Assembly (NCBI GenBank): GCA_964493715.1
Contig: CAZBPC010000002.1
Coordinates: 79,470 to 143,469 of the forward strand
Source: an uncultured archaeon
Lineage (GTDB): Archaea > Asgardarchaeota > Lokiarchaeia > Sigyniarchaeales > SOKP01
DNA length: 64,000 bases
Reading direction: 5' to 3'
A model generated the notes under the pieces. The model was not told the origin of the DNA. It was given only the letters and a program-made list of their open reading frames with translations, and ran no database searches. How positions within the stretch are numbered: position 1 is the stretch's first letter; the number at the start of each line of letters is the position of its first letter. The position numbers and the translations under genes were made by a program. Shown here piece by piece: positions 5,225 to 63,839 of this stretch.

Positions 5225-6411
5225 ATGGCTAAAAATGTAAAGCGAATAGGAATTTTAACGGGTGGTGGAGTTTCATTTAAGATACATCTTTTTGAACCAC
5301 AGACTGTCCCGGATTAAATTCAGTGATTTATGGGATAATGCTGAAAGCTTACGATGCGGATGTAGAATGCGTAGGAATTCTAAAAGGATGGAAAGGTTTT
5401 GTTGAAAATTTAACGATTCCCTTAAACATTGCAGAACATGACGATCTTCATACCAAGGGAGGGACAATATTGTATACAAGTCGTACTAATCCATTTAAAG
5501 GAGTTGAGGCTAAAGAGGAAAAAGCAAAGCAATTAACTAATCAATTCAATGTGTTAGGTATAGATGCATTAATTGCTATCGGTGGAGATGATACTCTTGG
5601 AGTAGCAGATACCATGTATAAAATTGCTAATGCAAATGTAGTAGGGGTTCCAAAAACGATAGATAATGACTTGAAGGGTACTCATTACACTTTTGGGTTC
5701 TGGAGCGCTGTACAATTAGCTTCTAATGCGATGGATAATCTCACAACAACCGCACGTTCACACCAGCGTGTTTTTGTAGTTGAGATTATGGGAAGAGATG
5801 CTGGTTTTTTAACCATGTATAGTGGAATTTCAGCAGGAGCTGATATAATATTGGTTCCTGAAACCCCCTTTAGTTTAGAAAAAGATATTGTTGACGTACT
5901 CAAAAAAAGAGCTAATGCTGGGTATAAATATCACATCATTGCCACATCTGAAGGAGCTCATCCTCATATCGATTCATTAAATCGAGATTTCAAGACAATT
6001 TCAAAGGAAACAATTGATAAATTACCTAAAGATACATTTGGGAATCCTTTATTAGCAAAGTTAAACATTTCACAAATTATCGTTGATGAATTAAATTTAA
6101 GAGACGATCTAAAAGAAGTATTTCTCCAAAATGACGTCGAATTCGAATGCAGGAGCGTAGTTTTGGGACATACAATGCGAGCTGGAACACCTAATTCGTT
6201 CGATAGAATTTTGGGATTGAGATTTGGATTAGCAGCCATGAATATGGTTTTAGAGTCTAAATTTGGGAACATGGTTTCGCTTCAAGGTAATAAAATTAAA
6301 ACCATGCCGCTTTCGGAAGGGGTAAAAAAGAAATATATTACCTCAGATAGTGATAAAATGGAATTAAGAGATTTACTTGTAAAAGTGCGGTATCTATCGA
6401 AACAAAAATAG
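5225..6411 (+). CDS. pfp: 6-phosphofructokinase, probably PPi-dependent; split gene (exons 5225-5270 and 5303-6411, 384 aa when spliced)
   Basis: Spliced N-terminus MAKNVKRIGILTGGGDCPGLNSVI. GGTILYTSR, GGDDT, PKTIDNDL (Asp/Lys signature of PPi-type enzymes), MGRDAG and LGHTMRAG. Confidence 0.92.
5271..5302 (+). other. 32-nt BHB-type intron in pfk mRNA
   Basis: Central helix GTGG(5265-68)/CCAC(5297-5300), 3-nt bulges AGT and AGA, inner stems TTCA/TGAA and AAGA/TCTT. Removal restores GGA GAC TGT CCC. Confidence 0.85.
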
Positions 6412-6433
6412 AATTTTACGTCATTTTTTATAT

Positions 6434-6517
6434 TTATCCGAACTGCTTTTCTTCTTCCACATCGCTATCAAGAGTATTTTTCTCTAAATATCTGTCAAGC
6501 CCATTTTACGTTAGAAT
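6434..6517 (-). pseudogene. Relic of the 3' end of an acyl-CoA dehydrogenase allele
   Basis: Reads LDRYLEKNTLDSDVEEEKQFG*, compared with [21 protein letters not shown] at the end of ORF 7876..9120. Confidence 0.75.
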
Positions 6518-6620
6518 ACCACTTCCAGAAGGGGTAAAAAAGAAATATATTACCTCGGATAGTGATAAAATGGAATTAAAAGATTTGCTGGTAAAAGTTA
6601 GAGATTCATCTAAAAAATTA
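6516..6620 (+). repeat. Diverged duplicate of the pfk 3' end (copy of about 6304-6411)
   Basis: IPLPEGVKKKYITSDSDKMELKDLLVKVR versus MPLSEGVKKKYITSDSDKMELRDLLVKVR; long exact DNA match gaaggggtaaaaaagaaatatattacctc. Confidence 0.9.
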
Positions 6621-7838
6621 AAATATTAAATCCTTAGGCCTAACATCAGGAGCTTTAAGAAGAATTAACCCTGATATAACCGTTATACAAGCTGCTACTG
6701 CAAAAGGAGTCCATCCTATTATTTCTATTAGTGATCCTCCTCTCATTATTGTAATACTTGATAAATCTACAATATATCCCATAAATATCGGACCAAACAC
6801 AAAACCTATATCTCCAATCGTACGATACACGCCCATATAAATTTCAAGTTTATCCTGAGGCGCAATATCAGTCACATAAGCAGCTATTGGCCCTGAAAGC
6901 CCAATCAAAGCTCCATAAATAAACATAACAAAAGAAATGTAAATCAGATTTGAAGTAAAAGGAATCCAAAGGGTTACTGGTGCAGAAACGACAAGTGATA
7001 ATAAAAGAGGAGTTCGTCGCCCAATTTTGTCTGAAATCAAGCCAATAGGTAACATGGTAATTGTAGTTGCAATAGCCGCTATGGTTAATAATATACCAAT
7101 ATCAAATTCATTTAAACCAAGGTTATTACCCGAAAAAAGTGGTACAAGAGTGTTTCGCACTCCCGTCCGTATAAAGAATAACGAAAAAATTGAGGGAAGA
7201 ACTGGAATGAATGATGGATCTCTTAAACTGAACCTTACTTGATGATAGAGATCTTGAATCTTAATAGGTTCCTTTTCATTCGAATTATTCACTCTTGGCA
7301 ACGTAAGAGTGGGAACGATCCCTATAGCAGATATAATAGCATAAGCAAAAAATGGAGCGTTTATACCATATAAATCTGCAATAAAACCACCAAAACTTGG
7401 CCCAAAAATGGATCCCAATAATAAAAAACCAGAATAAATGCTCATTAAAAAACCTCGTCTTTCTGGGCTAGCAACTAATGCAATAAAAATGGTTGCAATT
7501 GTTACATAAATTGCAGAACCAAAACCTTCAATAAATCGAGCTAAAAGTAAAATCCAATAATATTGAGCTGATCCCGCCAAAATTGAGGATCCCGATATGA
7601 GTATTAATCCCAAAAGCATCAAATTCTTTTTATTATATCTTTGAGATAAGAAACCAGCTGGTAAATCAATGAACATGCGAGCAATTCCAAATGCAGACAC
7701 CACAAGTCCAATAAGCGTATAATTAACATTAAAAGATTCGGCATAAAAAGGTAAAATTGGAGCAATTATGCTTAATCCCAATAATACGAGAAAGGTGACA
7801 ACCGCAAGGTTTAATGTGATTATAAGGTCTCTTTTTAT
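6618..7838 (-). CDS. MFS transporter
   Basis: Many hydrophobic helices and motif GLISDKIGRR. Frame is open upstream of TTG 7781 through the first helix to ATA 7838, behind GGGGAG. Confidence 0.85.
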   Translation of the reverse strand: MKRDLIITLNLAVVTFLVLLGLSIIAPILPFYAESFNVNYTLIGLVVSAFGIARMFIDLPAGFLSQRYNKKNLMLLGLILISGSSILAGSAQYYWILLLARFIEGFGSAIYVTIATIFIALVASPERRGFLMSIYSGFLLLGSIFGPSFGGFIADLYGINAPFFAYAIISAIGIVPTLTLPRVNNSNEKEPIKIQDLYHQVRFSLRDPSFIPVLPSIFSLFFIRTGVRNTLVPLFSGNNLGLNEFDIGILLTIAAIATTITMLPIGLISDKIGRRTPLLLSLVVSAPVTLWIPFTSNLIYISFVMFIYGALIGLSGPIAAYVTDIAPQDKLEIYMGVYRTIGDIGFVFGPIFMGYIVDLSSITIMRGGSLIEIIGWTPFAVAACITVISGLILLKAPDVRPKDLIF

Positions 7839-7875
7839 ATCACATCTCCCCTTGTTATGATTTTAGCATAACTAA

Positions 7876-9120
7876 TTAACCAAAATGTTTTTCTTCTTGA
7901 TGATCTGAATCAATTGCGTCTTTCTCAACATCACGATCAACCCATTTTTCGCTTAGTAATTCTTTATAGTATTCATGTTGTATTATCATGTTCATGATCT
8001 CTGTGGTTCCCGTCCACAATTCACCTATCCTTGAATCGCGTAAAATTTTTTCGATGGGATAGACTGTGGTATAACCAATACCCCCCATGATCTGCATCGC
8101 ATTGTTTATGACTTTCCAACAAGATTTAGTTGAAAATTTTTTCGATTCTGAGACTAACCTTCTTTGTAAAGCAGGTGGTGCTCCTGCATCAATCGTTCTA
8201 GCAGTATTAAGAACAATTGCTCTTGCAGCGTCTAAAAGTGTAATACTATCTGCAACTTTAAAATTTATTGCTTGGAAGTTTTTTATTGTTTGTCCAAAAG
8301 CTTTTCTTTTAGTTGAATATTTGGTAGCAATATGAAGACAAGTTCTTGCTGATCCTAATGAACCCGCTGCCGTTGTGAGACGTTCAGGAACCATCATTTG
8401 ATAAAAAATTCTTCCTCCTTGTCCTTCTCCCATAATGATATTCTCTTTCGGTACTTGAACATTTGTAAATTTGAGTCTTCCAGCACCCCCACCTCTAGTT
8501 CCTAATAAACCATAAATGTACTCCGTTTCTACACCTTCGCTACGATCCACGATAAATAGACTAAGAGATGATCGAGAATCCGATTTCGGATCCAAGTTAG
8601 TTTTAGCATAAACTAAAAAAAAGTCAGCTCCCTCAGCTCCCACAACAAAACGTTTTTCCCCATTCAGGATATAATAATCCCCTTCTTTAACAGCGGTGCA
8701 AGTTGCTCCAAAAAAATCAGATCCTCCTCTTGGTTCTGTTAGAGCTTCTGCAGTATACTTTTTACCCTCACACATTGGCTTCAAGTAATTTAATTTTTGA
8801 CCTTCAGAGCCAAATAAATTCATGGCTTCTCCAGTAATAATAGGAAGAGAATATAAGCATGGTAATGAGCTCCCAAGTACGCCTACTTCTTCAAGAGCAA
8901 CAACTTCACATTCCCAATTTAAGCCTCGACCACCAAATTCCTTGGGAAACCTTAATCCTATAAGATTTTTTTTGCCAAGATTCTGCAGGAATTCAGTTGG
9001 ATAATTGATTTCTTCTTTATCCATTTTTTTAATTAAGGTGTGAGGAACATCGTCTCTTACAAATGAACGTACTTCTTCTTTTATTTTTTTAGCATCTTCA
9101 CTTATTATATAATCAAACAT
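7876..9120 (-). CDS. Acyl-CoA dehydrogenase
   Basis: [32 protein letters not shown] and GTTEI. Confidence 0.93.
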
Positions 9121-9342
9121 TCAAGATTCACTTGATTAATTGTATTGTTCTATGATAATATATTCAAGATTATAATTATTTTTTATTATTTATTATATGT
9201 ATCAAAATTAATTCATGAATTCATTCATACTTCACTTAAAGAATCTATTTTAAGTAGAAGTCGTTTTTATTCTAGGGTATAAATATCTGAATATATATAA
9301 CTATATAAAAAAGTCATAAGAAAAATTATAAGTTAACCAATT

Positions 9343-10589
9343 ATGTTTACAAAAATAAAAAAAAATTATAAGAAATACCCAAATCCATTTAAAGTTCTGA
9401 TTCTCGCCACATTCATCGATAGATTTGGAGGTTTTTTATTATTTCCCTTTTTTTCAGTGTCTCTTATAGAACATTTTAAAGTAACAATAATTGAGGTAGG
9501 ATTTTTATTTTCTATATTTGCTGGTGGAAGCATAATTGGTAGTACGATAGGAGGAGCATTAACTGATAAATATGGCCGTCGTTCGATGCTGTTATTAGGT
9601 TTAATTTCAAGTGGAATTGGTAGTATCTTAATGGGTATAGTTAACGATTTATATCTTTTTTTATACTAGCAGCAGTTTTAGGCACATTAGGAGACTTGGG
9701 AGGTCCAGCCCGGCAAGCAATGGTTGTGGATTTACTTCCAGAAGATAGACGAGCAGATGGATTTGGATTATTACGAGTGGCTGTAAATCTCGCAGCAGTA
9801 ATGGGACCAATTCTTGGTGGAATGTTGCTAAATAGTTCATATCTGTTCTTATTTATATTAGACGCAGTATGTCGCTTAATTACTGCCTTAATTGTATTCA
9901 TAGTCATTCCAGAAACAAAACCTGAAAAACCAGAAGGCAAACTGGAAGAATCTGTAATGAAAACTATAGCTGGATATGAGGAGGTCCTTAAAGATGGATT
10001 GTATATATCATTTCTTTCCATTTCTGCTTTGACGGTACTAGTTTACATGCAAATGAGCAGTACGTTATCGGTATTTTTGTGGGACGTGTACGAGTTTCCA
10101 TTAAGCTTGTTTGGTGTGTTGTTGAGTATGAATGCGCTGATGGTGGTATTCTTTCAGTTCTTGATAACTAGAATGACCGCAAAGTATGCACCCATGAAAA
10201 TGATGGCTTTCGGCACACTTCTTTATATGATTGGTTTTGGGATGTATGGTTTTGTCTCCTTACCATACTTGTTTTTCGTGGCTATGGCAATTCTAACAGT
10301 TGGAGAAATGATTGTAATACCCGTATCACAAGCTACAGTAGCTCATTTTGCTTCTGAAGATAAACGAGGGCGATATATGGCAGTGTTTGGTTTTCACTGG
10401 TCGATTCCAACCTTATTTGGAGTCTCAGCTGCTAGTTTTGTCTATATTTCGCTTGGTCCGAATTGGGTATGATATTTAGCTGGAATTTTATGCCTGATTG
10501 CTATCATCGGTTTTTTAATACTCAATGGTATCGCAAAAGATCGTTTTTCGAATCCGACAGAAATTTTGGTTGAAAAATTTAGTGAATAA
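9343..10589 (+). pseudogene. MFS transporter disrupted by a frameshift and a premature stop
   Basis: Frameshift in the T7 run at 9656-9662 and in-frame TGA at 10470-10472 (PNWV*YLAG). Hydrophobic frame continues to TAA at 10589. Confidence 0.75.
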
Positions 10590-10730
10590 CAAATATTCCA
10601 TTGATTTTTTTACTTTTTTTAGAGATTATTAAGGTAATATAGAGATCTATCTTAAAGTATTACGAAGGTATATATTAAAGTGCGTGAAAGTTTAGTTTCA
10701 CGAATTCATTAATGTAAAAAATCTTGAATT

Positions 10731-11027
10731 TTAAATCTCGAATATTTCTTTAGCTTTTTCTTCTATAATTTTGTTATTTACTAGATCCCATATTTCAGAG
10801 TAATAAAACTCATCATCATTTTTTACTATTAAAGGAATACTTTCTACACATGCACTCATATCGCAATATAGACTGTTAAAGGTCGGATTTTTCATCAAAG
10901 GATCATTAAAATCATTTGGATCTTGGTAATCAAGAATCTTATAATCAATGTTCTTATCTTTTAGCCATTCTTTCAAGATTTCACAGAAAACACAATGCTT
11001 CTTAATAACAATTTTAAATTTAGCCAT
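10731..11027 (-). CDS. Glutaredoxin-like protein
   Basis: CVFC near the N-terminus and a SIP cis-Pro-like motif. Confidence 0.7.
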   Translation of the reverse strand: MAKFKIVIKKHCVFCEILKEWLKDKNIDYKILDYQDPNDFNDPLMKNPTFNSLYCDMSACVESIPLIVKNDDEFYYSEIWDLVNNKIIEEKAKEIFEI

Positions 11028-11078
11028 AATAAAATATATTTTAGTAATAATTTAAATTTTTATTTAAAAAAACCAATG

Positions 11079-12230
11079 CTAATCTTCAATTTCAAAAATA
11101 ATCTTTAAGTATTCATATTTAGAATTGAGTAATTTTAATATTTTACGAGAAAAATCTCTCAAATTTTTTGCGTGAATGGGTTTTTCTTCTGCTTGTTCAT
11201 GGTAAAAATCATGCAGCATCTTTCTAGTTTCATCTGGACCATTATCTTCTAAAAATTTAACCCAATGGGTCGATATTCTACAATATATCTTCAAATTCTC
11301 ATCTGGATGTTTGGATTTATCAAAAATGGAATCATTATATTTATTCAATTCACTACTCACTTTTTCAAGATGACTAGCGATTGCTAAAGAACTGCGACAT
11401 AAACTGATTAAATTGGAGGTGGTTCTTGAATTTCTAGTATTTACTGCTTCTTCGAATGCACTCCAACTTTCTAACCATTCATCTTTATGTATTCCTTCTT
11501 TTCCATCATTGATCATTGCTACATTTATAATATCGCTTAAATCAACATCATGACCTCTTTTGATTTTTTTATCAAAAATCTGTTTTAGATGTGAGCCTTC
11601 GAGAAAAGCACCTGCTCCAAAATCAAGCAATTGATTAAGATTATTTGCAGCAAATAATAATTCATTTTTTTTTTCTTCTGAGTTAAGTTTTACCCAATTA
11701 ACTTTCTTTTCCCATTCTCCAGTTTTTTTATTTCTTATGAAATTACATTCCTTTAATTTCGAGTCTAAAAGACTAGTTTGGAACATCCAAAAATCAATAT
11801 CATCAGTAAATCTTTTCCTTCTCCAATCTCTAGTGGTATATTTCCCAAGATATAACTTTAAAGTACCCCTAATTACGTTTAATTTCCCATTTTTCAAAGC
11901 ATTACGCGCCTCTTTACAGTAATAGTGATTTGGATCATTTGAGCACAATTCTATTTTATTTAATACTTTTCTAGCTTCATTTGCAACAATATCACAAGGA
12001 ATACTCCCATCAGATGGATAAGCTCTAGACCCCCCTCTTATAAAATCTTCAAATAAATCATATTCATCATCAGGAATCGAGTACCAAGGATTATTAAAAA
12101 AAAATTTTGTAAAGACATAATGAGTGAATTGATTTTCATCTTTCCAAGTTTTTTCTACAATGGGAGAAACATCTCTAAGATTATCACCTTTTGCTCTAAC
12201 ATCAGCTTTTATATCCCAAATTCCATTCAT
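11079..12230 (-). CDS. Hypothetical protein with nucleotidyltransferase-like motifs
   Basis: IRGTLKLYL...RFTDDIDF and KKIKRGHDVDLSD. Confidence 0.5.
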   Translation of the reverse strand: MNGIWDIKADVRAKGDNLRDVSPIVEKTWKDENQFTHYVFTKFFFNNPWYSIPDDEYDLFEDFIRGGSRAYPSDGSIPCDIVANEARKVLNKIELCSNDPNHYYCKEARNALKNGKLNVIRGTLKLYLGKYTTRDWRRKRFTDDIDFWMFQTSLLDSKLKECNFIRNKKTGEWEKKVNWVKLNSEEKKNELLFAANNLNQLLDFGAGAFLEGSHLKQIFDKKIKRGHDVDLSDIINVAMINDGKEGIHKDEWLESWSAFEEAVNTRNSRTTSNLISLCRSSLAIASHLEKVSSELNKYNDSIFDKSKHPDENLKIYCRISTHWVKFLEDNGPDETRKMLHDFYHEQAEEKPIHAKNLRDFSRKILKLLNSKYEYLKIIFEIED

Positions 12231-12358
12231 TTGAAATTCTTTTTAGTTTAATATTACTAATAAAATTAAATGAACAAACCAAACTTAAATCTTTTTTCTA
12301 TAAAATAAAGAAGTAATCAAGCATATAGTATAAATAGAATATCTATTTCTTTCTCAAT

Positions 12359-13042
12359 ATGAAAGAACTCTTTTCAGTTTTTGTATATGCACCTTGGGAT
12401 AAGCTCAAAACAAAGAAGCTAACAGAAATTAGATTATTATCTCTCAAAAGCATATTTGAAAAATATCCCGTAATTGAACGGAAATTTTTTGATGATCTAT
12501 CAGAAAACATTAGCAAAAACATCCATTATTCTTGGTTCGAATGTATTAAAAGAATTGTAGGCCCTGACAAAGAAGATTATGAAATTCAAAGTTGGAATAT
12601 TATTTGGGCAATGGATACGGATAATAGAATCTACCAATTCTTATTCCAAAAACTAGAGGATTCTGATGAATCTCAAGCAATTATGGTTGGTTTGGCTCCT
12701 CCAGAGCTTGGGAAGTTATTTTCAGAATATAGAGATGATGCAATTCTTAGGATTTTATCCGTATTGAATAATCCAACAAAATTAAAATTCTTGATGGGAT
12801 TAGCTCCAAAAGGCATATCAATAGCTCAAGAACAACAACTTATACAGGCTAATAAAAATAATCTGGACAAGATCAACTTCGTAAACTCACTAAAAGAACT
12901 ACCAAACATCCAAGGGCAATGGTTTTTTCCTCGTAATCCAATGTGTCCATTTTGTAAAGGATTGCTGGTTGAGAAAATGGATTATGATATTAGTTGTCAA
13001 AAGCTAGTGTGTCCTCAATGCAACTATGAAAGAAAGAAATAG
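12359..13042 (+). CDS. Hypothetical protein with C-terminal zinc ribbon
   Basis: 227-aa ORF with CPFC..CPQC. Confidence 0.65.
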   Translation: MKELFSVFVYAPWDKLKTKKLTEIRLLSLKSIFEKYPVIERKFFDDLSENISKNIHYSWFECIKRIVGPDKEDYEIQSWNIIWAMDTDNRIYQFLFQKLEDSDESQAIMVGLAPPELGKLFSEYRDDAILRILSVLNNPTKLKFLMGLAPKGISIAQEQQLIQANKNNLDKINFVNSLKELPNIQGQWFFPRNPMCPFCKGLLVEKMDYDISCQKLVCPQCNYERKK

Positions 13043-13123
13043 GATATTAACAATAACAATTTTATTAAATATTAGAATATATAATTTATAACGAAAAATA
13101 TATTATTTTGGTAGATAATTAAC

Positions 13124-14653
13124 ATGCCATATATTGTAGCACTCGATTTAGGCACCACAGGTTGTCGCACTTTTATATTTGACTTATCTGGAAGTATATT
13201 AGCAAGTGATTATCAAGAATGGGAGAGTATTTATCCTGCTCCATCACATGTAGAGCAAGATGCAAATGTTTGGTGGGACTCAATTAAAAGAACAATTGAG
13301 AGAGCTATTAAGAAGAGTGGTATTGATAAAACTGAAATTGTCAGTTTATCCATAACAAATCAGAGAGAAACTATTGTTCCTGTAGATAAAATGGGAAATC
13401 CTTTACACAATGCGCTAGTTTGGCAAGATAGAAGAACAACGGAACAAGTTGAATATATCAAGAAAAAAATTGGCGTTGAAAAGATATATAAAACAACTGG
13501 TTTAACCATAGATCCATATTTTTCCGCTACTAAAATACTTTGGTTTAAAAATAATAAACCTGAAATCTATAACCAAACTCACAAATTTTTATTGGTCTCA
13601 GATTTCATAATACATAAACTCACGGGACAGTTTGTAACTGATCATTCAAATGCTTCACGAACCATGCTTTTCGATATAAACAATTTGAAATATTCTGAAG
13701 AAATTGCTTCTGAATTGGAAATTGACCTTGATAAAATGCCAGAATCAATGGAAAGTGGAGTTGATGTTGGAGAAATCGTGTCCAACGAGACTGATTTTGA
13801 TAAGAAGACGTTAGTTATCACTGGAGCTGGAGATCAACAATCAGCAGCATTAGGAGTGGGTGTGGTATCACCAGGGGAGATTAAATGCACAACTGGGACG
13901 GGTAGTTTTATCCTCGCCTTCCTAGAAGAACCTAAATTTGATCCTGAGAGAAGAGTCTTATGTAGTTGTCATGCTGTACCAGGAAAATGGGTTCAAGAGG
14001 CAAGCATTTTTACTTCAGGAGCTGTATTAAGATGGTTTAGAGACCAAATTGCTGTTGATGAATGTCAAAAAGCTGAAGAATTGGGTCAAGATCCTTATGA
14101 AATAATGACATCGGAAGCTGAAAAATCCCCCATAGGGTCTAATGGGCTGCTTTTTATACCTCATTTAGTAGGAGCAGGAGCACCTCATTGGAATCCTTAT
14201 GCAAAGGGAATTTTATTCGGTTTATCACTAGGTCATCAAAGAAAAGATCTTTATAGAGCAGTTTTAGAAGGAGTAGCTTATGAAGTAAAAAAAAATATTC
14301 TTGTTTTTAAATCTCTAGGAATAGATCCGAAAGAATTAAAAATTACTGGAGGAGGTTCTCGTTCTGATTTATGGAATCAAATATATGCTGATACCTTAGG
14401 AATATCTTGTGTAAGAAATGTTAATGAAGAAGCTACATCTTTGGGGGCAGCAATATTAGCCGCATATGGAGCAGGGTTATTTCCAAATATATCTAAAGCT
14501 GCAGAAAATATTTGTAAAGTTGATAAACGATGGTCTCCAAATGAAAATCACGCTGAGATTTATGATAAAATATTCCGTTTTTCAAACAGATTGTATTCAA
14601 TTCTGAGTGAAAATGAGGTTTATAAGAACTTTAATGATATATTTCAAATTTGA
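13124..14653 (+). CDS. FGGY-family carbohydrate kinase (xylulose or glycerol kinase-like)
   Basis: LDLGTTG, TNQRET, WQDRRT, GAGDQQ, TTGTG and TGGGSRS. Confidence 0.9.
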   Translation: MPYIVALDLGTTGCRTFIFDLSGSILASDYQEWESIYPAPSHVEQDANVWWDSIKRTIERAIKKSGIDKTEIVSLSITNQRETIVPVDKMGNPLHNALVWQDRRTTEQVEYIKKKIGVEKIYKTTGLTIDPYFSATKILWFKNNKPEIYNQTHKFLLVSDFIIHKLTGQFVTDHSNASRTMLFDINNLKYSEEIASELEIDLDKMPESMESGVDVGEIVSNETDFDKKTLVITGAGDQQSAALGVGVVSPGEIKCTTGTGSFILAFLEEPKFDPERRVLCSCHAVPGKWVQEASIFTSGAVLRWFRDQIAVDECQKAEELGQDPYEIMTSEAEKSPIGSNGLLFIPHLVGAGAPHWNPYAKGILFGLSLGHQRKDLYRAVLEGVAYEVKKNILVFKSLGIDPKELKITGGGSRSDLWNQIYADTLGISCVRNVNEEATSLGAAILAAYGAGLFPNISKAAENICKVDKRWSPNENHAEIYDKIFRFSNRLYSILSENEVYKNFNDIFQI

Positions 14654-14727
14654 AATCCAAATCATTATTTATTTCTTTTGTCTAATTACTTGATTCTGGG
14701 GTTAATGAACAATTTTATATAGTTAAA

Positions 14728-39662: not shown

Positions 39663-40319
39663 ATGCTAATGATTCAAGGTAATGAAGTATCTTTAGAAGC
39701 GGAGATTTTTCAGTCAGGAAATGAATTTAACAATACTGTAGTCTTAATATGCCATCCTCATCCTCAATTTCTGTAGGGTTTCCTAAGAAAGGGAAAATAT
39801 GGAGGATCGATGCATAATAATGTTATATCTTATATTTTCAATCATTTAGTTAAAAATGATATCTCGTGTTTACGTTTCAATTTCAGAGGTGTAGAAAGAT
39901 CAACTGGAAAACATTCAGGAGGAAGTGGAGAGTTATCTGATGTTCATAGTTGTATTACATTTCTCCAAAAAAGAGAGATACAAAGGATAATAATATGTGG
40001 GTATTCTTATGGTGCCGCTATCGGATGCTCAGCTGTAAATTTTTCAGAATCAATCATAGGATTCTGCGCGATTTCTTTTCCGTGGGATTTTATGGGAAAA
40101 AATTACAAAAATCTCTCACAAACTGAAAAACCTAAACTATTTATTCAAGGGGATCAAGATTCTATTGCTAGTTTTGATAATTTCTTGTCTCATTATAATT
40201 TCTATAAGGAACCCAAAGAAAAAATTATTATCAAGGGAGCTGATCACTTCTATTGGGGATTAGAAGGAATTTTAGCAGATAAAGTGGTTAAATTTGTAAA
40301 AAAGTTCAATCCATCTTAA
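39663..40319 (+). CDS. Alpha/beta hydrolase; split gene (exons 39663-39766 and 39797-40319, 208 aa when spliced)
   Basis: Spliced sequence LICHPHPQYGGSMHNNV, then LRFNFRGV, nucleophile GYSYG, QGDQD and GADHF. Confidence 0.88.
39767..39796 (+). other. 30-nt BHB-type intron in hydrolase mRNA
   Basis: Central helix TCCT(39761-64)/GGGA(39791-94), bulges CAA and AAA, inner stems TTTCT/AGAAA and TAGG/CCTA. Contains an in-frame TAG. Confidence 0.85.
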
Positions 40320-47050: not shown

Positions 47051-47058
47051 GAAGACAA

Positions 47059-52668: not shown

Positions 52669-52691
52669 AATATCACCATTATTGTAGCCTA

Positions 52692-53813: not shown

Positions 53814-53837
53814 AATATATTACCGATTCTAACTAGG

Positions 53838-53951: not shown

Positions 53952-54140
53952 TCACTCTTTCTAATTAAAAAAAAATATTTAATACATCCGTTTGGATAAA
54001 ATCTACAAATATCTATAATATTTACCAATATTAATCATATAGTTATATATATTCTATATATGCTTCGTTAATAATTTAAAAATCAATAATTTAAGAAACT
54101 GACCTTGATTATTAATTTTAGGATATAGTATAATTAAATT

Positions 54141-54392: not shown

Positions 54393-54480
54393 AAAACAAA
54401 AAAGCTTTATTTCTTCACTCCTTTTTAAAGTATACTTATTGTTCTTATTTCCAGTAAATTACTTAATTTAAAGCGAGATA

Positions 54481-55938: not shown

Positions 55939-57315
55939 ATGGAAAATGATGTAGATATATTTCAATTAGCAAATCATGGACTTAATACCCTAAATAAATA
56001 TGGATCTACATTAAAATGTGCAGAACTTTTCTTCGGTCTAAATGAATATCTCACTATCGAAATAGAAGAAAATTCAATAAAAAATAGTGAAATTGGTAGT
56101 GATGAGGGTGTCTCAATAAGAGCAATAGGACGAAATGGTTCTCTTGGTTTCTCTTTTACAAATCGATTGAATGATCAATCTATAGATCATATGATTGAAA
56201 ATTCTATCAAAATGATGCATTCAGGAACAGAAGATTTGGACTTTATTGATCTCCCCCAACCTTTCGACTCGTATCCAAGCGTGAAGGATATGTATGATCG
56301 AAACGTTCAATCATTAACAATAGAAGATTCTATCGATTATGTAACAGAATTAATAAGAATATGTGATGAAGATGATTTAGCTATTTCTCAATCGGCAAAT
56401 TTTACAGCAAGTACATCTAAAAGTAATATTTTTAACACTAATGGGTTGGAAGTGGAAGGAGAAGAAACTATTTGTTCAATTTCTTCTCATGTAATTGTAA
56501 AAGACAAAACTAGAAAAGATACAACTTTCGGGTTTGAATATCAAAGTGAGAGATTTTTGAGTGAAATTCATCCCTCAAGTATCATTAAATCTGCGTTAAC
56601 AAAAGCAAAACAGAATTTAAATCGAAAAAAAATTAAAAGTATGCGTTGTCCAGTAGTCTTAACTCCAAATGGAACGATAAGCTTGATCTTAAAACCTATT
56701 GCTGCTGCTGTCAATGCTGAAGCATTCCAACATAAAAGAACATTCTTTGTAGATAAAAGAAATGAACAAATAGGTTCTGATCAGATTACTATAAGAGATG
56801 ATGCGTTGATAAATGGAGCAGTTGGATCCGCGATTTTTGACGCTGAAGGTGTTCCTTGTCAAAATACAATGATTATTGAAAATGGACTTTTCTTAAACAA
56901 CGGATTATTACATAATAGCTATACCGCCGGGAAAGAAGGAGTCAAAAGCACGGGAAATGCCTCAAGGAATTCATATTCCTCAACTCCCTCAATAGGAATT
57001 TCAAATTTCATCGTATCGCCTGGAAAAATAGCAAAAAATGAACTCATTGAAGATATAAAACTTGGAATATTACTTGATTACACAGGAGATAGCCCTAATA
57101 TATCAACTGGAGATTTTTCAGGTCTCATTCTACAAGGAAATATTATTGAGAATGGTGAAATAGGACATGCTCTAAATGAAACAATGATAGGCATAAATTT
57201 ATTGGAGTTATTCAAGAAAGTTGATTGCATTTCTTCTGAATATAAAATTTATGGGTCCTATCAAGCTCCATTCTTAAAAATTAACGATATTCAAATTATT
57301 GGGAGCAGTACTTAG
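55939..57315 (+). CDS. pmbA: TldE/PmbA family protein
   Basis: FDAEGVP, STGNASR and TGDFS; follows tldD. Confidence 0.9.
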   Translation: MENDVDIFQLANHGLNTLNKYGSTLKCAELFFGLNEYLTIEIEENSIKNSEIGSDEGVSIRAIGRNGSLGFSFTNRLNDQSIDHMIENSIKMMHSGTEDLDFIDLPQPFDSYPSVKDMYDRNVQSLTIEDSIDYVTELIRICDEDDLAISQSANFTASTSKSNIFNTNGLEVEGEETICSISSHVIVKDKTRKDTTFGFEYQSERFLSEIHPSSIIKSALTKAKQNLNRKKIKSMRCPVVLTPNGTISLILKPIAAAVNAEAFQHKRTFFVDKRNEQIGSDQITIRDDALINGAVGSAIFDAEGVPCQNTMIIENGLFLNNGLLHNSYTAGKEGVKSTGNASRNSYSSTPSIGISNFIVSPGKIAKNELIEDIKLGILLDYTGDSPNISTGDFSGLILQGNIIENGEIGHALNETMIGINLLELFKKVDCISSEYKIYGSYQAPFLKINDIQIIGSST

Positions 57316-57836
57316 GTTGTTACGTTTAAATTTTGCCAGAGAATCTCCCAAAACACTTCATTTAAGTCTAATTTAATTTCCCAGAACTCCATTATAATAC
57401 TATAATTTACTCCTGGTACCAAAAATGATACATTCAACTTTTCCGATGTCCATCTAGTTCCATGATTGATTTTCACATTTGTGATATTCAGATATGAAGT
57501 GGCATTTACAGAACCTAAAGAACTCTTAATAGTTTCATTATCCCCTTTCAAAATTTCTAAGCGAAGAGTAAATTCTCGATTTAACTGGTTTTCCACAAAT
57601 ACATAAAAAGAAGCATTTTCTCCTACTGAAAGTTCAGATGGAAAATCATCAAGTTTCATATCTGAATTTAATACTCCAAAGGAAATAAAACCGGGTGCAG
57701 GTTTTAACACGTAATACAAAATAAACCCTGATATTACCACTATTCCTATGATTAATAAAACTTTCAATAAATTATCAAACTCTAATCGGTTTGATATATT
57801 CTCTTTTCTATTTGTTTGTTTAATGGTGTTAATCAT
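57312..57836 (-). CDS. Membrane-anchored protein (DUF1616-like)
   Basis: Single TM followed by a beta-rich domain with several NxS/T sequons. Confidence 0.6.
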   Translation of the reverse strand: MINTIKQTNRKENISNRLEFDNLLKVLLIIGIVVISGFILYYVLKPAPGFISFGVLNSDMKLDDFPSELSVGENASFYVFVENQLNREFTLRLEILKGDNETIKSSLGSVNATSYLNITNVKINHGTRWTSEKLNVSFLVPGVNYSIIMEFWEIKLDLNEVFWEILWQNLNVTT

Positions 57837-58890
57837 TATCCTTGAACCATAAAATTGTTTTTTCTAATGCTTCTTTTAATGAAGTTTTGGGTTCCCATTT
57901 TAAAATTTTTCTTGCTTTACTAATATCAGGACTTCGACGTACAGGATCATCAACAGGTAAGGATTTAAAGATAATTTTCGATTTTGAATTGGTTAAATCT
58001 TTAATTAAATTGGCTAATTCAAGTATTGTATATTCTTTTTCATTACCTAAATTAATAACTTCCCCAATTGCTTCTTTATTATATACAAATTTTAGAATTC
58101 CTTCAATTTCATCAACTACATATGTGAAAGATCTCGTTTGAGAGCCTTTACCAAAAACTGTGATATCGTCGTCATTTAGAGCTTGATGGATAAAATTAGG
58201 GACTACTCTTCCAAATTCTGGACCATGACGTATACGTGGACCTGAAGTATTAAAAATCCTTACAATTTTTGTTCTAATTCTATGCTGTAATTCATAAGCT
58301 TTAACGAAAGCTTCTCCAGCTCGTTTTGATTCATCATAACAACTTCTGGGTCCTACTGGGTTTACGTTCCCGAAATAGCTCTCAGGAGTAGGAATTGCTT
58401 CATCAGGTGGATTTCCATATGTTTCTGATGTGCTTGTATAAAAAAATAATGCATTATGTGCTTTAGCAATTCCTAACGCGTTCATTGTGCCTAAAGTGTT
58501 GCTTTTTAAAATTGAAATAGGATGTTCCTTAAATTCAAATGGTGAAGCTCTGCTTGCCATGTGCATAACTATGTCAATTTTTTTAATATCTCCTATACAA
58601 ACACTATTGGGGTAATTACTGAAACCAAAATATATAGGTTTAGAGATATCGTGATTAATAAATCGGAAGTTTTCTTTATCCATGAGATGCAGGATATTGC
58701 TAAAAGAACCTGAACTCAAATTATCTATACATATACAAAAAGCTCCTTGCTTGATTAAGACATCACAAACCCAAGATCCTAAAAAACCGGCACCACCACT
58801 TACTAAAATTATCTTATCTCTAAATGAGATGCTTTCCTTTTCAAGACGACTAATAATTTCATTTATATCATCTGTTATCCGATAAGCCAT
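57829..58890 (-). CDS. UDP-glucuronate decarboxylase-like NAD-dependent epimerase
   Basis: GGAGFLG, ASRASP, STSETYG, YDESKR and DDPVRR. Confidence 0.88.
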   Translation of the reverse strand: MAYRITDDINEIISRLEKESISFRDKIILVSGGAGFLGSWVCDVLIKQGAFCICIDNLSSGSFSNILHLMDKENFRFINHDISKPIYFGFSNYPNSVCIGDIKKIDIVMHMASRASPFEFKEHPISILKSNTLGTMNALGIAKAHNALFFYTSTSETYGNPPDEAIPTPESYFGNVNPVGPRSCYDESKRAGEAFVKAYELQHRIRTKIVRIFNTSGPRIRHGPEFGRVVPNFIHQALNDDDITVFGKGSQTRSFTYVVDEIEGILKFVYNKEAIGEVINLGNEKEYTILELANLIKDLTNSKSKIIFKSLPVDDPVRRSPDISKARKILKWEPKTSLKEALEKTILWFKDND

Positions 58891-59015
58891 ATTTTATCAA
58901 CGCAATAAATATCTGATTTTTATTTTAATAAAATTATTGTGTTATTTATAAATTTTTTAATCAAAAGTACCCTCTTTAATTAGAAATAGCATTAGTTTTT
59001 GACGTAAAATCCTAT

Positions 59016-59606
59016 TTAAAGTGTTTTTTGTCCACAATATTGACAATATTTTAATTCGATAGGATAAAATCCTCCACAATTAACACACTTTTTCAATGAA
59101 CTTTTTAAAATTTCGCGACCAAGAGTCTCAAATGCTGATTCAACGTTTTCACCAGTTTTTGATGATACTCCAATAATTTCCCCTTGGAAATTATGCTTTT
59201 CAAAGAATTTTTTAGCATCTTCTCTTTTAATCTCTCTCTGATCTTCTAAATCAATCTTCGCTTCAATAAGTATCTTAGTTTTTGGACTATTGGGAATTGA
59301 GGAGATTACTTTTATCCAATCATATAGGTCTTCTAAAGATTCTCTATTTGTAAGGTCATACAAAACTAAAGCACCTGATGCACCTGATACATATGAAGGA
59401 ATTAATTCTCTAAACTTCTTTTCCCCCGCAAAATCCCAAATGTTCAGTAGGATCTCCGTATCATCTACAACGACTTTCTTAGTTTCGAAATCTACGCCTA
59501 TTGTCGATAAAGTTGATTTATCAAACTTTCCAGTTGCGTATCGCCTAATGAGAGACGTTTTACCAACATCCTTAGCACCTGCTACTATTACTTTAAATTT
59601 TATAAT
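59016..59606 (-). CDS. Rab-like small GTPase with C-terminal Zn ribbon
   Basis: Frame open upstream of the ORF-track start: FKVIVAGAKDVGKTS, STIGVDF, IWDFAGE, EAKID, SSK, then CVNC..CQYC. Probable ATT start at 59606. Confidence 0.88.
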   Translation of the reverse strand: MIKFKVIVAGAKDVGKTSLIRRYATGKFDKSTLSTIGVDFETKKVVVDDTEILLNIWDFAGEKKFRELIPSYVSGASGALVLYDLTNRESLEDLYDWIKVISSIPNSPKTKILIEAKIDLEDQREIKREDAKKFFEKHNFQGEIIGVSSKTGENVESAFETLGREILKSSLKKCVNCGGFYPIELKYCQYCGQKTL

Positions 59607-59737
59607 TTTAACTTCACCAGTTATTAACTTATTTGTGATTAAGAATTCAATTCAGTTATAATATTATATAAATTGCAATTGTTAAATATTTTTATCAATA
59701 TTATAAATTTAAAAAGTATCCGAAAATGTTCTATTTC

Positions 59738-62062
59738 CTAATACTCTTTATCATATTCATATCTACTAATTCTAAAAATTTCATCAGCAATTTTCTTTCC
59801 AATCTTATCAGTTTTCATTAATTCATCTATTTCGGCACTAAAGATCTTTTGAAGTGATTTAAATTCCATTAAAAGATTTTTGGCTCTTAAAGCATTTATA
59901 CCCGGAATTCCAGCCACAATGAATTCTAATAATTCAGAATCCTCCAAAGGTTTTTTTTCAAACCTAATTTTAAAATCACCTTTGGTTGTTGCTTGTGCCT
60001 TTTTCGCCAAATGATAAATAATCAAGGCGGTTTCATTAGAATCGGCTGTTCGATAAATGTATATTCCTAAGTTTAGAATTATTGATGAGATAGCTCCGTA
60101 TAAAGCGTTTTCATTGATGCTACTTGTAAAAAGGTCCCCTTCAAGAATTAAGATGGGTTGTTCAAATGACTTCTTTAGTTCAAATAATTCTTTAAAAAGT
60201 CTCCCATCTTTAATTGAATCGGTAAAATCTTGAGCTGCTTTCCTTTCAATTCCCGAAATTTCTGAGATAATATAATCTGCGACGGGTAATTGCTCTAATT
60301 TAATCTCAACGTCCATAAGAGAAAGTTTTCTTACAACAGGGGATTTGGTTTCCCTATTATCACATATAATAATTACTTTATCATTATTTTCTTGAAATTT
60401 ATCTTTTAAATCGATAATCTCGTTTTCAATTGAATCAGATCTTGCAGGTGTGTTTAGATATTGAGTTAAACTTGCTTGTTCTTTAGGAAGAGAATCTGAA
60501 TCCTTAAGCTTTTTTAAATTTCTATTCATGCTCTCTTCCTTGTGTTTTTCTGCCCAATAATATCCTTCATCTCTGGTTCCTTCAGCAATTAAGATAAATA
60601 CTTTCCCTTCTTTTTTCCTCCCAGTCCGACCTCTTCGTTGAATTGATCTAACTGCACTAGGAATAACATCATAAAATACTACCATATCACATTCTGCTAT
60701 ATCCAAACCTTCCTCTGCTACGCTTGTCCCTATTAAAGTATTATAAGTGCCCTCTTTAAAATCTTGCAATAAATTTATCTGTTCTTTTTGCGTTAGACCC
60801 TTATCTGTACTATTTGAGCGTTGCCCTACAAACTTGTGTGCTCTTATCTCAGGATAGCTTTTAAGATAGCGTACTATATTTTTTACTGAATCTCGATAAT
60901 GACAAAATACTAATATCCTCGATTCTGGGTTTTCTAATAATTGATCATGTAATAATTCTTTTAAATATTTTAATTTTGGATGCACCAATCCTTTTTCTTG
61001 AGCAATATCCACTAATTCTATAACTTTTTTAAAATCATAATCAGAAAATAATTCGATTAAAGATTTATTAGCAATTCCTGATTTTATTTTTGCTATATTC
61101 TTATCCATATAATCTTTAAGAGCATTAACTCCTTGAGTTTCAATCAATTCATCTATATGTGATAATCGAATGGCATTAGCATTATATTTTTTGGCTAAAA
61201 ACATCTCATATTTTATATCATCATTTCTTGCTGAAGAAATTCTCTTGTTTATGACTTTGTCTAATTTTAAGAGATCTTTACGAGTAACCTTGTTTACATC
61301 AGAAGAGTTCAACAAATCCGATTTTTTAAGAAATGTGTAAACTTTTTTCAACTTTTCAATGACTAGTTTCTTTATTTCTAAATACTCCACCGGCAAAGAA
61401 ATTTTAATCCATTCATTATCTACATTATGTATATATGGTTTTACATCTCTGTCAGAATCAGTTCGAATCTCAACGTGGTCAATAAATAAATTTGATTTAA
61501 TTTCATTTATCTTTGATTCAGTTGAACCTGGACTCGCAGTTAGTCCTAAAATCTGGGGTGTTTTCGATAATTCCATATATTTCTGAGCAATAAAACTATA
61601 AGCGTAATCACCAATTGCTCGATGGCACTCATCAAAAATAATCAACGCAACATCTTGAATTGAATATAAGTTAGAAATTAAGTCATTTTGTAGAACCTGT
61701 GGAGTCATAAAAGCAACTTTAATGTCGTTCCATAACATCTTTCTTTTATCGGGAGGAATAGATCCAGTGATGGATTGTAACATTTCAGGATCAATATTTG
61801 TCAACTCCAAGAAAGAATTTAAATGTTGGTCCACTAATGGTTTAGTTGGCGCTAAGAAGACTATCTTGGAATTTTGGATCTCAGAAAGTCGATGCATGGC
61901 CAACATAAGAGCTACTATTGTCTTTCCTAATCCCGTCGGAATTACAACAAGGCAATTTTTATTTAAGCAATTAATAAATATATCTTCTTGATATGCTCGT
62001 CTAAGAACCATATTCCCTTTTAAAAGTGGATGAGATAGAAATTTCTCAGATAAAGTAATCAC
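59738..62062 (-). CDS. hef: Hef / FANCM-like helicase with ERCC4 nuclease
   Basis: PTGLGKT, DECH, TASPG, QRRGRTGR, ERK nuclease motif and HhH. Confidence 0.95.
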   Translation of the reverse strand: MITLSEKFLSHPLLKGNMVLRRAYQEDIFINCLNKNCLVVIPTGLGKTIVALMLAMHRLSEIQNSKIVFLAPTKPLVDQHLNSFLELTNIDPEMLQSITGSIPPDKRKMLWNDIKVAFMTPQVLQNDLISNLYSIQDVALIIFDECHRAIGDYAYSFIAQKYMELSKTPQILGLTASPGSTESKINEIKSNLFIDHVEIRTDSDRDVKPYIHNVDNEWIKISLPVEYLEIKKLVIEKLKKVYTFLKKSDLLNSSDVNKVTRKDLLKLDKVINKRISSARNDDIKYEMFLAKKYNANAIRLSHIDELIETQGVNALKDYMDKNIAKIKSGIANKSLIELFSDYDFKKVIELVDIAQEKGLVHPKLKYLKELLHDQLLENPESRILVFCHYRDSVKNIVRYLKSYPEIRAHKFVGQRSNSTDKGLTQKEQINLLQDFKEGTYNTLIGTSVAEEGLDIAECDMVVFYDVIPSAVRSIQRRGRTGRKKEGKVFILIAEGTRDEGYYWAEKHKEESMNRNLKKLKDSDSLPKEQASLTQYLNTPARSDSIENEIIDLKDKFQENNDKVIIICDNRETKSPVVRKLSLMDVEIKLEQLPVADYIISEISGIERKAAQDFTDSIKDGRLFKELFELKKSFEQPILILEGDLFTSSINENALYGAISSIILNLGIYIYRTADSNETALIIYHLAKKAQATTKGDFKIRFEKKPLEDSELLEFIVAGIPGINALRAKNLLMEFKSLQKIFSAEIDELMKTDKIGKKIADEIFRISRYEYDKEY

Positions 62063-62076
62063 CAGTAATGATTATA

Positions 62077-62465
62077 CCAAGTAGTTTGTAGATAAAATTA
62101 TTTTGTCGATCTAATATAAATAGTGAGTCTTTAGAATCTCTTAAATTCGATTAATACCTTTTTAATAAATTATATTCCATTCATGCTAGAGAATAAGATT
62201 AGGAATACTAATGTAAATAAAAATAGCATTATGTTTAGTTTTATATTGGATTTCATATTGTATATAACCCGAAAATTTTTGTTATTATTGTAAAGAGTAT
62301 CGAATATCTTTTAAAACTTTTTTCCAAAAAACATCATTGAAAATTTTAATTTGATCAAAATTGACACCAATATTGATGATTCCAAGCAGGTTGTAGATAG
62401 TTTTATTTTGTCGATCTAATATAGATAATGAGTCAAGAGAATCTCTTAAATTCGATTAATAACTT
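62077..62465. repeat. 84-nt imperfect direct repeat (62077-62160 and 62382-62465)
   Basis: Shared ttattttgtcgatctaatata and agaatctcttaaattcgattaata; about 11 mismatches by eye. Confidence 0.9.
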
Positions 62466-62483
62466 CTTGATAACTTAGATGAG

Positions 62484-63668
62484 TTAGTAGGATGATAGAA
62501 ACTTTTTTAATGATTTCTGTTCTTCTAACCTTTTTAAAAAAGGATTATAGACATATTTTGGAATATTCTCTAATGTTACTCCTACTTTTTTAAGAATAGG
62601 ATTCGAATTTATTTGTTTGATGATTTCATTCTGAAAAAAGATATTATTTCTATGAAAACCATAAATTGCTTTTATTCTAATTAGAATGACTGATTTATCA
62701 GTGGATATTATATCCTTCAGACGATCGTTTCTTTTTTGAGTATAAAAATCCTCAATCATTTTATGATAAGCATTTGGAAAAAGATCATGCTGCTCACCAT
62801 CATATTCGGCAGCTACTTTAAATCTTATGTTCTCGATTACTACATTTTCATTATACAAATCATATTTTAAACGACCTCCTTGACCACTTCCTAAACCAAA
62901 AATATGTTTGAATGTTATTGGTCTAAAATTCACACCAAAAATTTTATTCAAATAAAGTTGTAATATTTTTTGACAGAAATATTCATTGCATTCTGGACAC
63001 CATCTGCTCTGGTTTATTAAATATCTTACTTTAACGATCCATATATGATCAATATCTTTAGATGGATGACCAATTTTAATATATCTCTCTGAAGGTATAT
63101 CTTCCATCAATTCCCACTCATCTCTTGATGTGATTATATAACCATTTTGATCACTGATAAATTCTTTTATCAAATCATAAGTGTATTTCTTTTTAAGTCT
63201 GCATTTTGATCCCCAAATCCTCTCATAAATGAGAATTGATTGTTCTTTGCCAAATCTATCATTTAGATATGATTTAACCCAATTTATAATAGTTGGTTTT
63301 GAAGCTGCTATTTCTTTCTGTATTGAATTTATTCCCATAATTGAATCTGAATGTGTTAATTGTTCATCAATAAATAGGAAATCCATCAATGTTAAGAATT
63401 TTGACTGTCTATCATTAGTCTTCTGTAATTCTTTATGCCAGATGTCAGAATATATTTTTTTGGCGGTTTCAGGGTTTTTTTCCTTTATCAAATTTACCAA
63501 AATATACTTTCGTAAAGTTTTTCTATTCAAATTATACTGTTTTCCTAAAAATTCTAGCTTAGGTATTTGATTTATATTAGAAGGATAGTAATTCTCTATA
63601 AGAGTTCTAATATTTTTCCACATTTCATCAATTCTTTTTTCGAAATTATCTTTTGGTTTATATTCCAT
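62484..63668 (-). CDS. Putative endonuclease with HTH-like repeats, Zn motif and Vsr/PD-(D/E)XK-like C-terminus
   Basis: WCPEC, LKYDLY, AAEYDGEQH and NDRLKD..LIRI. Confidence 0.6.
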   Translation of the reverse strand: MEYKPKDNFEKRIDEMWKNIRTLIENYYPSNINQIPKLEFLGKQYNLNRKTLRKYILVNLIKEKNPETAKKIYSDIWHKELQKTNDRQSKFLTLMDFLFIDEQLTHSDSIMGINSIQKEIAASKPTIINWVKSYLNDRFGKEQSILIYERIWGSKCRLKKKYTYDLIKEFISDQNGYIITSRDEWELMEDIPSERYIKIGHPSKDIDHIWIVKVRYLINQSRWCPECNEYFCQKILQLYLNKIFGVNFRPITFKHIFGLGSGQGGRLKYDLYNENVVIENIRFKVAAEYDGEQHDLFPNAYHKMIEDFYTQKRNDRLKDIISTDKSVILIRIKAIYGFHRNNIFFQNEIIKQINSNPILKKVGVTLENIPKYVYNPFLKRLEEQKSLKKFLSSY

Positions 63669-63737
63669 ATAATATGCAGAGAAACTGCCTATATAATATG
63701 ATGGTGAGTAGAAATTTAATAATATTAAAGAGAAAAA

Positions 63738-63839
63738 TGCGCAAGGAGGGAATTTTTCCTAATTGAAGTATTTTCAAGAAGTTTGAACCCTCGACCTACA
63801 CGGTGTGAGCGTGTCGTTATACCACTAGACCACTCGCGC
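63738..63839 (-). tRNA. tRNA-Val(CAC) with a 30-nt intron in the T-loop (63753-63782)
   Basis: Acceptor GCGCGAG/CTTGCGC-A, anticodon arm ACACG-CTCACAC-CGTGT, and T arm GAGGG-TTCAA[intron]TT-CCCTC. CCA not encoded. Confidence 0.92.

Follow-up and report, generated by a model that had tools for sequence, protein, structure and literature searches.

In archaea a bulge-helix-bulge (BHB) intron is present in the pre-mRNA of the crenarchaeal cbf5 gene (Watanabe 2002; Yokobori 2009, PMC2738675), and a 2020 paper gives cbf5 as the only coding example (PMC7714728). A literature search for archaeal mRNA BHB introns, with subscription journals and supplementary files outside its reach, found just cbf5 and HVO_1309 of Haloferax volcanii, while the accessible text of a preprint on archaeal tRNA introns (bioRxiv 10.64898/2026.10.13.758758) contains the word "mRNA" 0 times, "messenger" once (as read by the anticodon) and "protein-coding" once (for neighbouring genes), and names as intron-rich lineages the Jordiarchaeia and Atabeyarchaeia, not the Lokiarchaeia. 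Asgard archaea are reported to have an (alpha-beta)2 form of the tRNA splicing endonuclease EndA with a broad-specificity L1 loop (PMC5829648). Here we describe a 64,000-nucleotide (nt) stretch of contig CAZBPC010000002.1 (hereafter the window) in which the genes for a phosphofructokinase (PFK), an alpha/beta hydrolase and tRNA-Val(CAC) are each interrupted by a short insert, and we consider it very likely that the inserts in its protein-coding genes, and others of 29-33 nt elsewhere in the same genome, are archaeal protein-spliced BHB mini-introns of a Lokiarchaeia-type Asgard archaeon. TRNA-style introns of about 30 bases would thus probably lie inside ordinary and essential protein genes of this organism, whose mRNAs would have to be cut and rejoined for those proteins to be made, and coding-gene BHB introns at genome scale in an Asgard lineage have probably not been reported so far.

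Inserts in the window and the effect of their removal

A preliminary description of this DNA had placed inserts at the three positions listed as candidate introns in Table 1, and had proposed that a cut after the second base of each bulge regenerates the host sequence; the positions were confirmed and the cut rule holds at all three sites, where removal of the insert restores the host. As it stands in the DNA, the PFK gene is frameshifted after 15 codons and appears in a list of open reading frames (ORFs) as a 39-amino-acid (aa) stub and a 362-aa ORF, while without the insert it reads GGT GGT GGA G/AC TGT CCC GGA TTA AAT (GGGDCPGLN), giving MAKNVKRIGILTGGG-DCPGLN. Its exon 1 can be aligned to the N-termini of insert-free orthologues, and this gene is the single PFK-family match in the genome. 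The unspliced hydrolase gene meets an in-frame TAG within its insert; with the insert taken out, HPHPQYGGSMHNN is restored, CAT CCT CA/A TAT GGA GGA TCG ATG reading HPHPQYGGSM (more widely ...CHPHPQ-YGGSMHNN), and 29 same-genus loci keep the ATG and the reading frame of this gene. No tRNA was found by ARAGORN or Rfam in the unmodified window, and once its insert is removed ARAGORN calls a 72-nt tRNA-Val(CAC).

The PFK insert has a central helix of GTGG(5265-5268)/CCAC(5297-5300) with 4/4 pairs, a 5' bulge of AG/T, a 3' bulge of AG/a and an inner stem, TTCA/TGAA, of 4 base pairs (bp), and the hydrolase insert has TCCT(39761-39764)/GGGA(39791-39794), with 4/4 pairs including one G-U, and an inner stem, TTTCT/AGAAA, of 5 bp plus an apical stem. 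A 4-bp helix flanked by two 3-nt bulges had been proposed for all three inserts, and this holds for the PFK and hydrolase genes but not for tRNA-Val. Next to the 3' bulge of both protein-gene inserts there is just one closing base pair, beyond which come a small internal loop and more pairs, so the motif is of the relaxed HBh' form rather than the strict, textbook hBHBh' form, and the earlier account of the geometry stands only when loosened in this way. Its suggestion of a probable Asgard host was borne out, as the closest public relatives of the source genome are Promethearchaeota/Promethearchaeia metagenome-assembled genomes including the "Loki" bins Loki_b31 and Loki_b32, which marks it as an Asgard archaeon of Lokiarchaeia type. 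The source genome (G000) has 3.68 Mb in 160 contigs, 31% G+C and a completeness rating of 100%, and it falls within a species-rich genus.

Table 1. Features of the window and insert-bearing genes elsewhere in the source genome. Positions are those of the window unless a contig is named; a slash marks the insertion point.
Feature	Position	Strand	Length	Remarks
PFK exon 1	5225..5270	+	46 nt	MAKNVKRIGILTGGG plus first base of Asp codon; ATG at 5225; end is GTGG (5265-5268), strand of central BHB helix, then AG (5269-5270), first two bulge bases
PFK candidate intron	5271..5302	+	32 nt	BHB-type, phase 1
PFK exon 2	5303..6411	+		Through stop codon; Pfam PF00365, E 1.4e-82, profile positions 11-276 of 277
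Hydrolase exon 1	39663..39766	+	104 nt	Ends ...HPHP plus CA of Gln codon; TCCT (39761-39764) is strand of central helix, CA the first two bulge bases
Hydrolase candidate intron	39767..39796	+	30 nt	BHB-type, phase 2
Hydrolase exon 2	39797..40319	+		Through stop codon; Pfam Abhydrolase_11, E 8e-10, from profile position 12
tRNA-Val(CAC) 5' exon	63783..63839	-		Acceptor stem to T-loop position 58; ARAGORN, insert removed
tRNA-Val(CAC) candidate intron	63753..63782	-	30 nt	Non-canonical, in T-loop; relaxed BHB
tRNA-Val(CAC) 3' exon	63738..63752	-		T-loop end, T-stem, acceptor 3' strand; from ARAGORN span 12-83 of joined string
Elongation factor 2 (EF-2)				Two inserts: at AHID/HGKTT and before EEQARGITI
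RtcB	G000:C2:12136-12164	-	29 nt	Insert at GGVGYD/INCG; near-perfect BHB
RNase HII				Insert at DEAGR/GP
Ras-family GTPase				Insert at WDVAGQ/
Archaeal histone				Insert after six codons
Thiolases				Two genes with inserts
DeoC-family aldolase				Two inserts
Mg-chelatase-like AAA/VWA protein				Insert-bearing host
Coiled-coil protein				Insert-bearing host
Two proteins without Pfam family				Insert-bearing hosts
Two window genes				PFK and hydrolase, as above

A motif-blind catalogue of inserts

Inserts elsewhere in the genome were sought by comparison with homologues, using as reference 2.33 Mb of a same-genus genome (G017) which is without both window introns; its open frames were compared with the source genome by tblastn, and the reverse direction was also run. 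Good matches were obtained for 1385 of the 2204 G017 ORFs. Five breaks between adjacent alignments carried 29, 31, 31, 32 and 35 extra bases, and 10-aa insertions numbered 17 against 2 deletions of 10 aa, most of them with stop codons and lying between highly conserved residues. Short first exons, those of PFK and histone, came from a targeted search (in the terminal-exon search, at a score of at least 28, real against reversed queries gave 10/10, 6/8, 9/19 and 1/6, and only high-scoring hits were kept), and insert boundaries were refined solely by seeking the junction that gave the best match at the protein level. The resulting count, with two cases checked by hand, is about 16 inserts, each 29-33 nt long, in 14 genes, named after their intact G017 orthologues (Table 1), with an additional, uncertain one on contig C67 (35 or 38 nt), so that the earlier expectation of many such inserts genome-wide was met from 1385 comparable orthologues and one relative. 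Simple scaling gives a genome total of roughly 40, which is a floor because the comparison can see only introns that are absent from one reference, in conserved genes and in 39% of frames (1385 of 3583).

Run in reverse, the comparison showed that G017 carries 6-8 other inserts, and among their hosts, judged by motif, are what we take to be EF-1alpha (GHIDHGK/ST), a class I aminoacyl-tRNA synthetase interrupted at its HIGH-type motif (in PYVNAIPHLGN), presumably the methionyl enzyme, and adenylosuccinate synthetase (GD/EGKGK). The introns themselves are genome-like in composition (30% G+C), and the 12 exon bases flanking them on either side have 47% and 42% G+C compared to 32% for random coding 12-mers. 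The idea that the introns are copies of a mobile repeat was rejected, as they share no similarity beyond words of 7-9 nt; each of the 15 listed source-genome inserts matches its own locus only, the exception being the insert on C6, with two matches in the genome.

Candidates on C85, C11, C27, C111, C16, C8, C4, C2 (query H19_71655) and C6 (paralogue query) were dropped as upstream or non-coding indels, low-complexity sequence or low-scoring matches, as were several G017 sites with scores below 100. No BHB was found at the 21-nt G017 insert H6, and a further 21-nt G017 insert, H17 at CSGN/TARS, lies outside the scored set.

Insert geometry and candidate splicing enzymes

A 4-bp central helix in the exact EndA register was present in 15 of the 22 motif-blind inserts, compared to 4.2% of 20,000 random coding positions treated identically, and a central helix together with an inner stem of at least 3 bp in 12/22 compared to 0.3%; with boundary shifts of up to 6 nt allowed, the comparison was 14/22 against 6.1%. 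In the curated final table the helix is found in 19/22, a figure which is biased because knowledge of the motif guided the manual adjustment of four boundaries (hydrolase -3, aldolase +3, histone and C46), and 15/22 is the unbiased figure.

Ribosomes may hop over a stretch that stays in the mRNA, as in phage T4 gene 60 and at the 27-55-nt "byps" of a yeast mitochondrion, and such translational bypassing would suit inserts that are short, bear hairpins, lie in coding regions and, in 9 of the 10 source-genome cases of in-frame length, contain stop codons. Bypassing needs matched take-off and landing codons, yet a direct repeat of at least 3 nt at the boundaries was seen in 1/22 inserts compared to 9% in the null; it does not predict the EndA-register helix found in 15/22, and a comparable insert lies in a tRNA gene, which is never translated, and so we regard it as highly unlikely. 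Removal from RNA by another nuclease and ligase pair, or by a self-cleaving fold, would fit with the many relaxed motifs and weak outer helices, but relaxed motifs are within the range reported for (alpha-beta)2 enzymes with the L1 loop (PMC5829648). At 29-33 nt the inserts are also well below the size of a group I or group II ribozyme, their geometry is that which defines an EndA substrate and is about 50-fold above random positions, and nothing points to a different enzyme, making this route unlikely too.

The enzymes that EndA-type splicing would require are encoded in the genome. Two genes each have tRNA_int_endo_N and tRNA_int_endo domains (Pfam), a catalytic-like one on contig C5, closest to solved crenarchaeal chains (3p1z_B, E 1e-36), and a more divergent partner on C58, closest to 1a79, which has no His where the first has one; with the catalytic-triad positions being those that we presume for this family, the two fit a putative pair of catalytic and structural subunits. 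RtcB has one genomic locus (E 3e-145), and its Pfam profile is split between positions 47 and 48 by the 29-nt insert, so that the message of the sole ligase gene would itself need splicing. The cbf5 gene of this genome is uninterrupted over its TruB_N domain, both TruB_N matches falling within a single stop-free frame of 343 aa.

Splicing of the coding-gene inserts might then proceed as follows. In the pre-mRNA, exon bases -6 to -3 would pair with intron bases -6 to -3 and the interior of the intron would fold as a hairpin, leaving a 3-nt bulge on each strand; the two-subunit (alpha-beta)2-type endonuclease, made up of the C5 and C58 proteins, would cut after the second base of each bulge, and RtcB would ligate the exons, with the intron probably being circularised. 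The location of the introns in G+C-rich, highly conserved motifs may reflect where a stable exon helix can form. As the unspliced mRNAs contain a frameshift or a stop, EndA and RtcB would both be needed to make PFK, the hydrolase, EF-2, RNase HII, the Ras-family GTPase, the histone, the thiolases, the aldolase and RtcB itself.

Presence, absence and selection among relatives

At the site of the window PFK intron (intron 1), 16 of 21 same-genus loci read GGnGGnGGnG/AyTGyCC without interruption and 5 have a 31-nt homologue at the exact point, while a second PFK intron of 30 nt, containing stop codons, lies inside the IGGD/DT motif in 6/21. A second collection of 80 species-level loci had intron 1 in 16, lacked it in 61 and was unclear in 3 (one masked, two insert-free by eye), and among its 77 usable genes 55 have neither intron, 7 intron 1 only, 6 intron 2 only and 9 both. 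On a weakly resolved PFK tree introns 1 and 2 need 12 and 13 state changes respectively, which makes their distribution very patchy. Of the 29 same-genus loci of the hydrolase, 22 have the intron and 7 lack it to the exact base, and as introns differ in this way between species of one genus, they have often been gained or lost.

Where introns are retained their pairing is retained also. In an alignment of PFK intron 1 from 15 sequences (the window and 14 of 16 carriers) 94.2% of cells were paired compared to 30-48% when the strands were slid, the central helix being paired in 100% of cells, and the covariation score was matched in 0/500 shuffles; an exon change of GGT to GGC is matched by an intron change of A to G, and one carrier (L198) has a wholly different inner hairpin with the exon helix kept. 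The hydrolase alignment of 19 sequences comprised the window and 18 of the 22 carriers, the others being identical over the segment or missed by the search pattern; its central helix was paired in 19/19, 88.8% of cells were paired compared to 49-79% when slid by 1-3 columns, five pairs of the inner stem have changes on both sides, and again the covariation score was matched in 0/500 shuffles.

For PFK the ratio of nonsynonymous to synonymous substitution rates (dN/dS) came to 0.055 over 133 pairs of the 22 genes with an intron and to 0.053 over 117 pairs of the 55 genes without. Constraint is thus equally strong with and without introns, so the interrupted PFK genes are not pseudogenes, in agreement with the preliminary description, which had counted relaxed selection on the hosts among the outcomes that would speak against introns. 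That the host genes are decaying and the inserts ordinary insertions might be thought from the frameshift or stop in every unspliced host, but apart from the selection test, which contradicts it, the hosts include single-copy essential genes (EF-2, RtcB and the sole PFK here; EF-1alpha and the class I aminoacyl-tRNA synthetase in the relative), completeness of the genome is rated at 100% and the same insert is kept across many species with compensatory changes, making decay extremely unlikely. Assembly or sequencing artefacts might be suspected in a draft of 160 contigs, but inserts recur in many independent records, with homologous ones at the same site in dozens of genomes and metagenome contigs that were assembled independently, and we place the chance of artefact close to nil.

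The region around the PFK gene has some features of its own. Introns 1 and 2 occur together in 9/77 genes (the L187-L266 set), where about 3 would be expected under independence, and both lie at the identical exon sequence GGnGGAG/AC. A free-standing 318-aa ORF with LAGLIDADG homing-endonuclease domains (window 4184-5140, + strand; Pfam LAGLIDADG_3, E 2.3e-8) ends 84 nt upstream of the gene, and the upstream flank in 21 relatives looks unlike that of the window; any connection of this ORF with the mobility of introns is speculative. On its downstream side the gene is closely followed, at about 6513-6617 (G000:C2:85982-86086), by a copy of the PFK 3' end of some 105-115 nt, with 80% identity to residues 333-367 and 83% in DNA.

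The EF-2 gene was searched for in 151 genomes of the phylum. Among the matches listed, internal stops in the orthologue occur only in the family of the window (G000, G184, G179, G173 and G074, from four genera) and orthologues of other families, again among the matches listed, have none, while a frameshift-type truncated start was seen in G000 and in G159 (the site itself being uninspected in the latter). In 80 metagenome contigs (L271-L350) EF-2 inserts were found at 16 loci in all, around residues 34-40 and 65-70: 30-nt inserts after AH (3 loci), after AHID (2) and near DSD (10), and a 43-nt insert after DHG (1). At the P-loop motif a stretch of about six codons holds three or four different intron positions, and with several independent insertion points this region looks like a hot spot.

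Two of these contigs, L302 and L304, have 95% DNA identity, yet only one of them has a 30-nt intron, suggesting that it was gained or lost recently; in a search of the metagenome contigs for near-identical, cDNA-like EF-2 pairs this was the sole pair, and it had no sign of RNA origin. In two other Asgard families, matches to EF-2 paralogues have one or two internal stops (G084:C9:41612-43783, G094:C38:1264-3426, G056:C1:645591-647726 and G068:C1:531494-533617), which could be similar introns outside the family of the window.

Across the whole source genome ARAGORN called 27 tRNAs when its intron option was on and 16 when it was off, with Met, Asp, Glu, Phe, Tyr, Trp, His, Cys, Asn and Gln unrepresented, and so low a count in a genome rated 100% complete fits with many further hidden tRNA introns. 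The 16S rRNA match (G000:C23:39074-40238, - strand) is in four pieces with model gaps at 331-385 and 485-497, and extends almost as far as the fetched sequence does (C23:40244), where the contig probably ends. A single-contig genome of the same order (G033, 3.7 Mb) has a completeness score of 63%, and one idea is that split marker genes lower it.

Weighing the evidence

The inserts are exact and restore the frame, their BHB geometry is above chance and covaries, their presence and absence are precise, their hosts are under purifying selection and the enzyme genes are in place, and it is from these that we infer the cutting and joining of RNA. That this step is drawn from DNA sequence is one of several points that weigh against the interpretation as introns. 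At boundaries refined by homology the central helix is less than perfect in 7 of the 22 inserts, and an outer helix of at least 2 bp directly closing the 3' bulge is found in 6/22, short of the strict hBHBh' form; the tRNA-Val intron has just 3/4 central pairs and an inner stem of 2 bp. The structures used in the covariation tests were drawn from the tested sequences, which are themselves mutually related, and this will have inflated the scores, and the dS of PFK is about 1.8, near saturation. Translation in archaea can begin on mRNA that is still being made, and the interpretation does not account for how unspliced messages would be shielded from ribosomes.

The genome-wide search by motif that had been recommended also counts on this side. 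A scan for a 4-bp helix with a 4-bp inner stem (L 12-100) that fuses two open frames (U and D at least 150) gave 2528 hits with the real pairing rule and 3179 with a decoy rule, with no peak near 30 nt, and the same scan within the window gave 37 and 49, of which only the two known sites looked genuine. With no excess over the decoy the motif alone is not diagnostic, and the homology approach was therefore adopted; it is comparison with homologues, rather than the motif joined to frame fusion, that finds the inserts.

Taking these points together, BHB splicing of the coding-gene inserts remains the reading that we favour, and we lean, with less assurance, to extending it to the whole Lokiarchaeia-type family. 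Coding-gene introns in this family would be dynamic, spliceosome-independent and species-specific, numbering dozens per genome, and concentrated in hot spots at G+C-rich motifs of the highest conservation, among them P-loops, HIGH-type motifs and catalytic loops, and the expression of core translation, glycolysis, chromatin and ligase genes would depend on EndA and RtcB.

Implications and comparison with known systems

Gene callers, completeness estimators and pathway reconstructions assume that archaeal protein genes are uninterrupted, and if the introns are real, annotations wrongly truncate or split PFK, EF-2 and RtcB. There would also be an extra and possibly regulated layer of expression, including a ligase that splices its own message, the RtcB intron forming a self-referential loop. 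The closest prokaryotic relatives of eukaryotes would already have interrupted coding genes, and would have to separate splicing from translation or tolerate the two together, while the rapid and patchy gain and loss would suggest active spreading, for example by reverse splicing followed by recombination. The origin and spread of introns, their preference for conserved motifs and splicing beside coupled transcription and translation would all become testable in the sister group of eukaryotes.

In the splicing of HAC1/XBP1 mRNA a short coding intron is removed independently of the spliceosome by an endonuclease, with ligation by an RtcB-family enzyme in animals and a change of frame, and the system described here, if correct, would be a natural prokaryotic counterpart. 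The nuclease in that case is Ire1, which recognises paired stem-loops in one regulated gene, unlike EndA acting on a BHB in what would be dozens of housekeeping genes, so the likeness is one of analogy only and implies no homology of introns.

Among archaeal systems, the 5' untranslated leader of HVO_1309 in Haloferax volcanii offers an mRNA substrate of the archaeal splicing endonuclease that was confirmed in vitro (PMC7714728), in this respect resembling the inserts described here, but it is a single case and lies outside a coding region. The non-canonical tRNA introns of Thermoproteales and Asgard archaea are alike in being short, with BHB or relaxed BHB motifs at many positions, repeated gains and enrichment at splice-competent motifs (PMC11291895; bioRxiv 10.64898/2026.10.13.758758), and the T-loop intron of the window tRNA-Val is of the same kind; as far as the accessible text of those reports goes, they deal with tRNA genes only. 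The cbf5 intron likewise has a BHB in a coding region, the use of a hetero-oligomeric endonuclease and a ligase, and gain and loss between lineages (PMC2738675), but it occurs in one gene of one phylum, whereas the present set comprises about 16 introns from 14 unrelated genes in a single Asgard genome, and others in its relatives.

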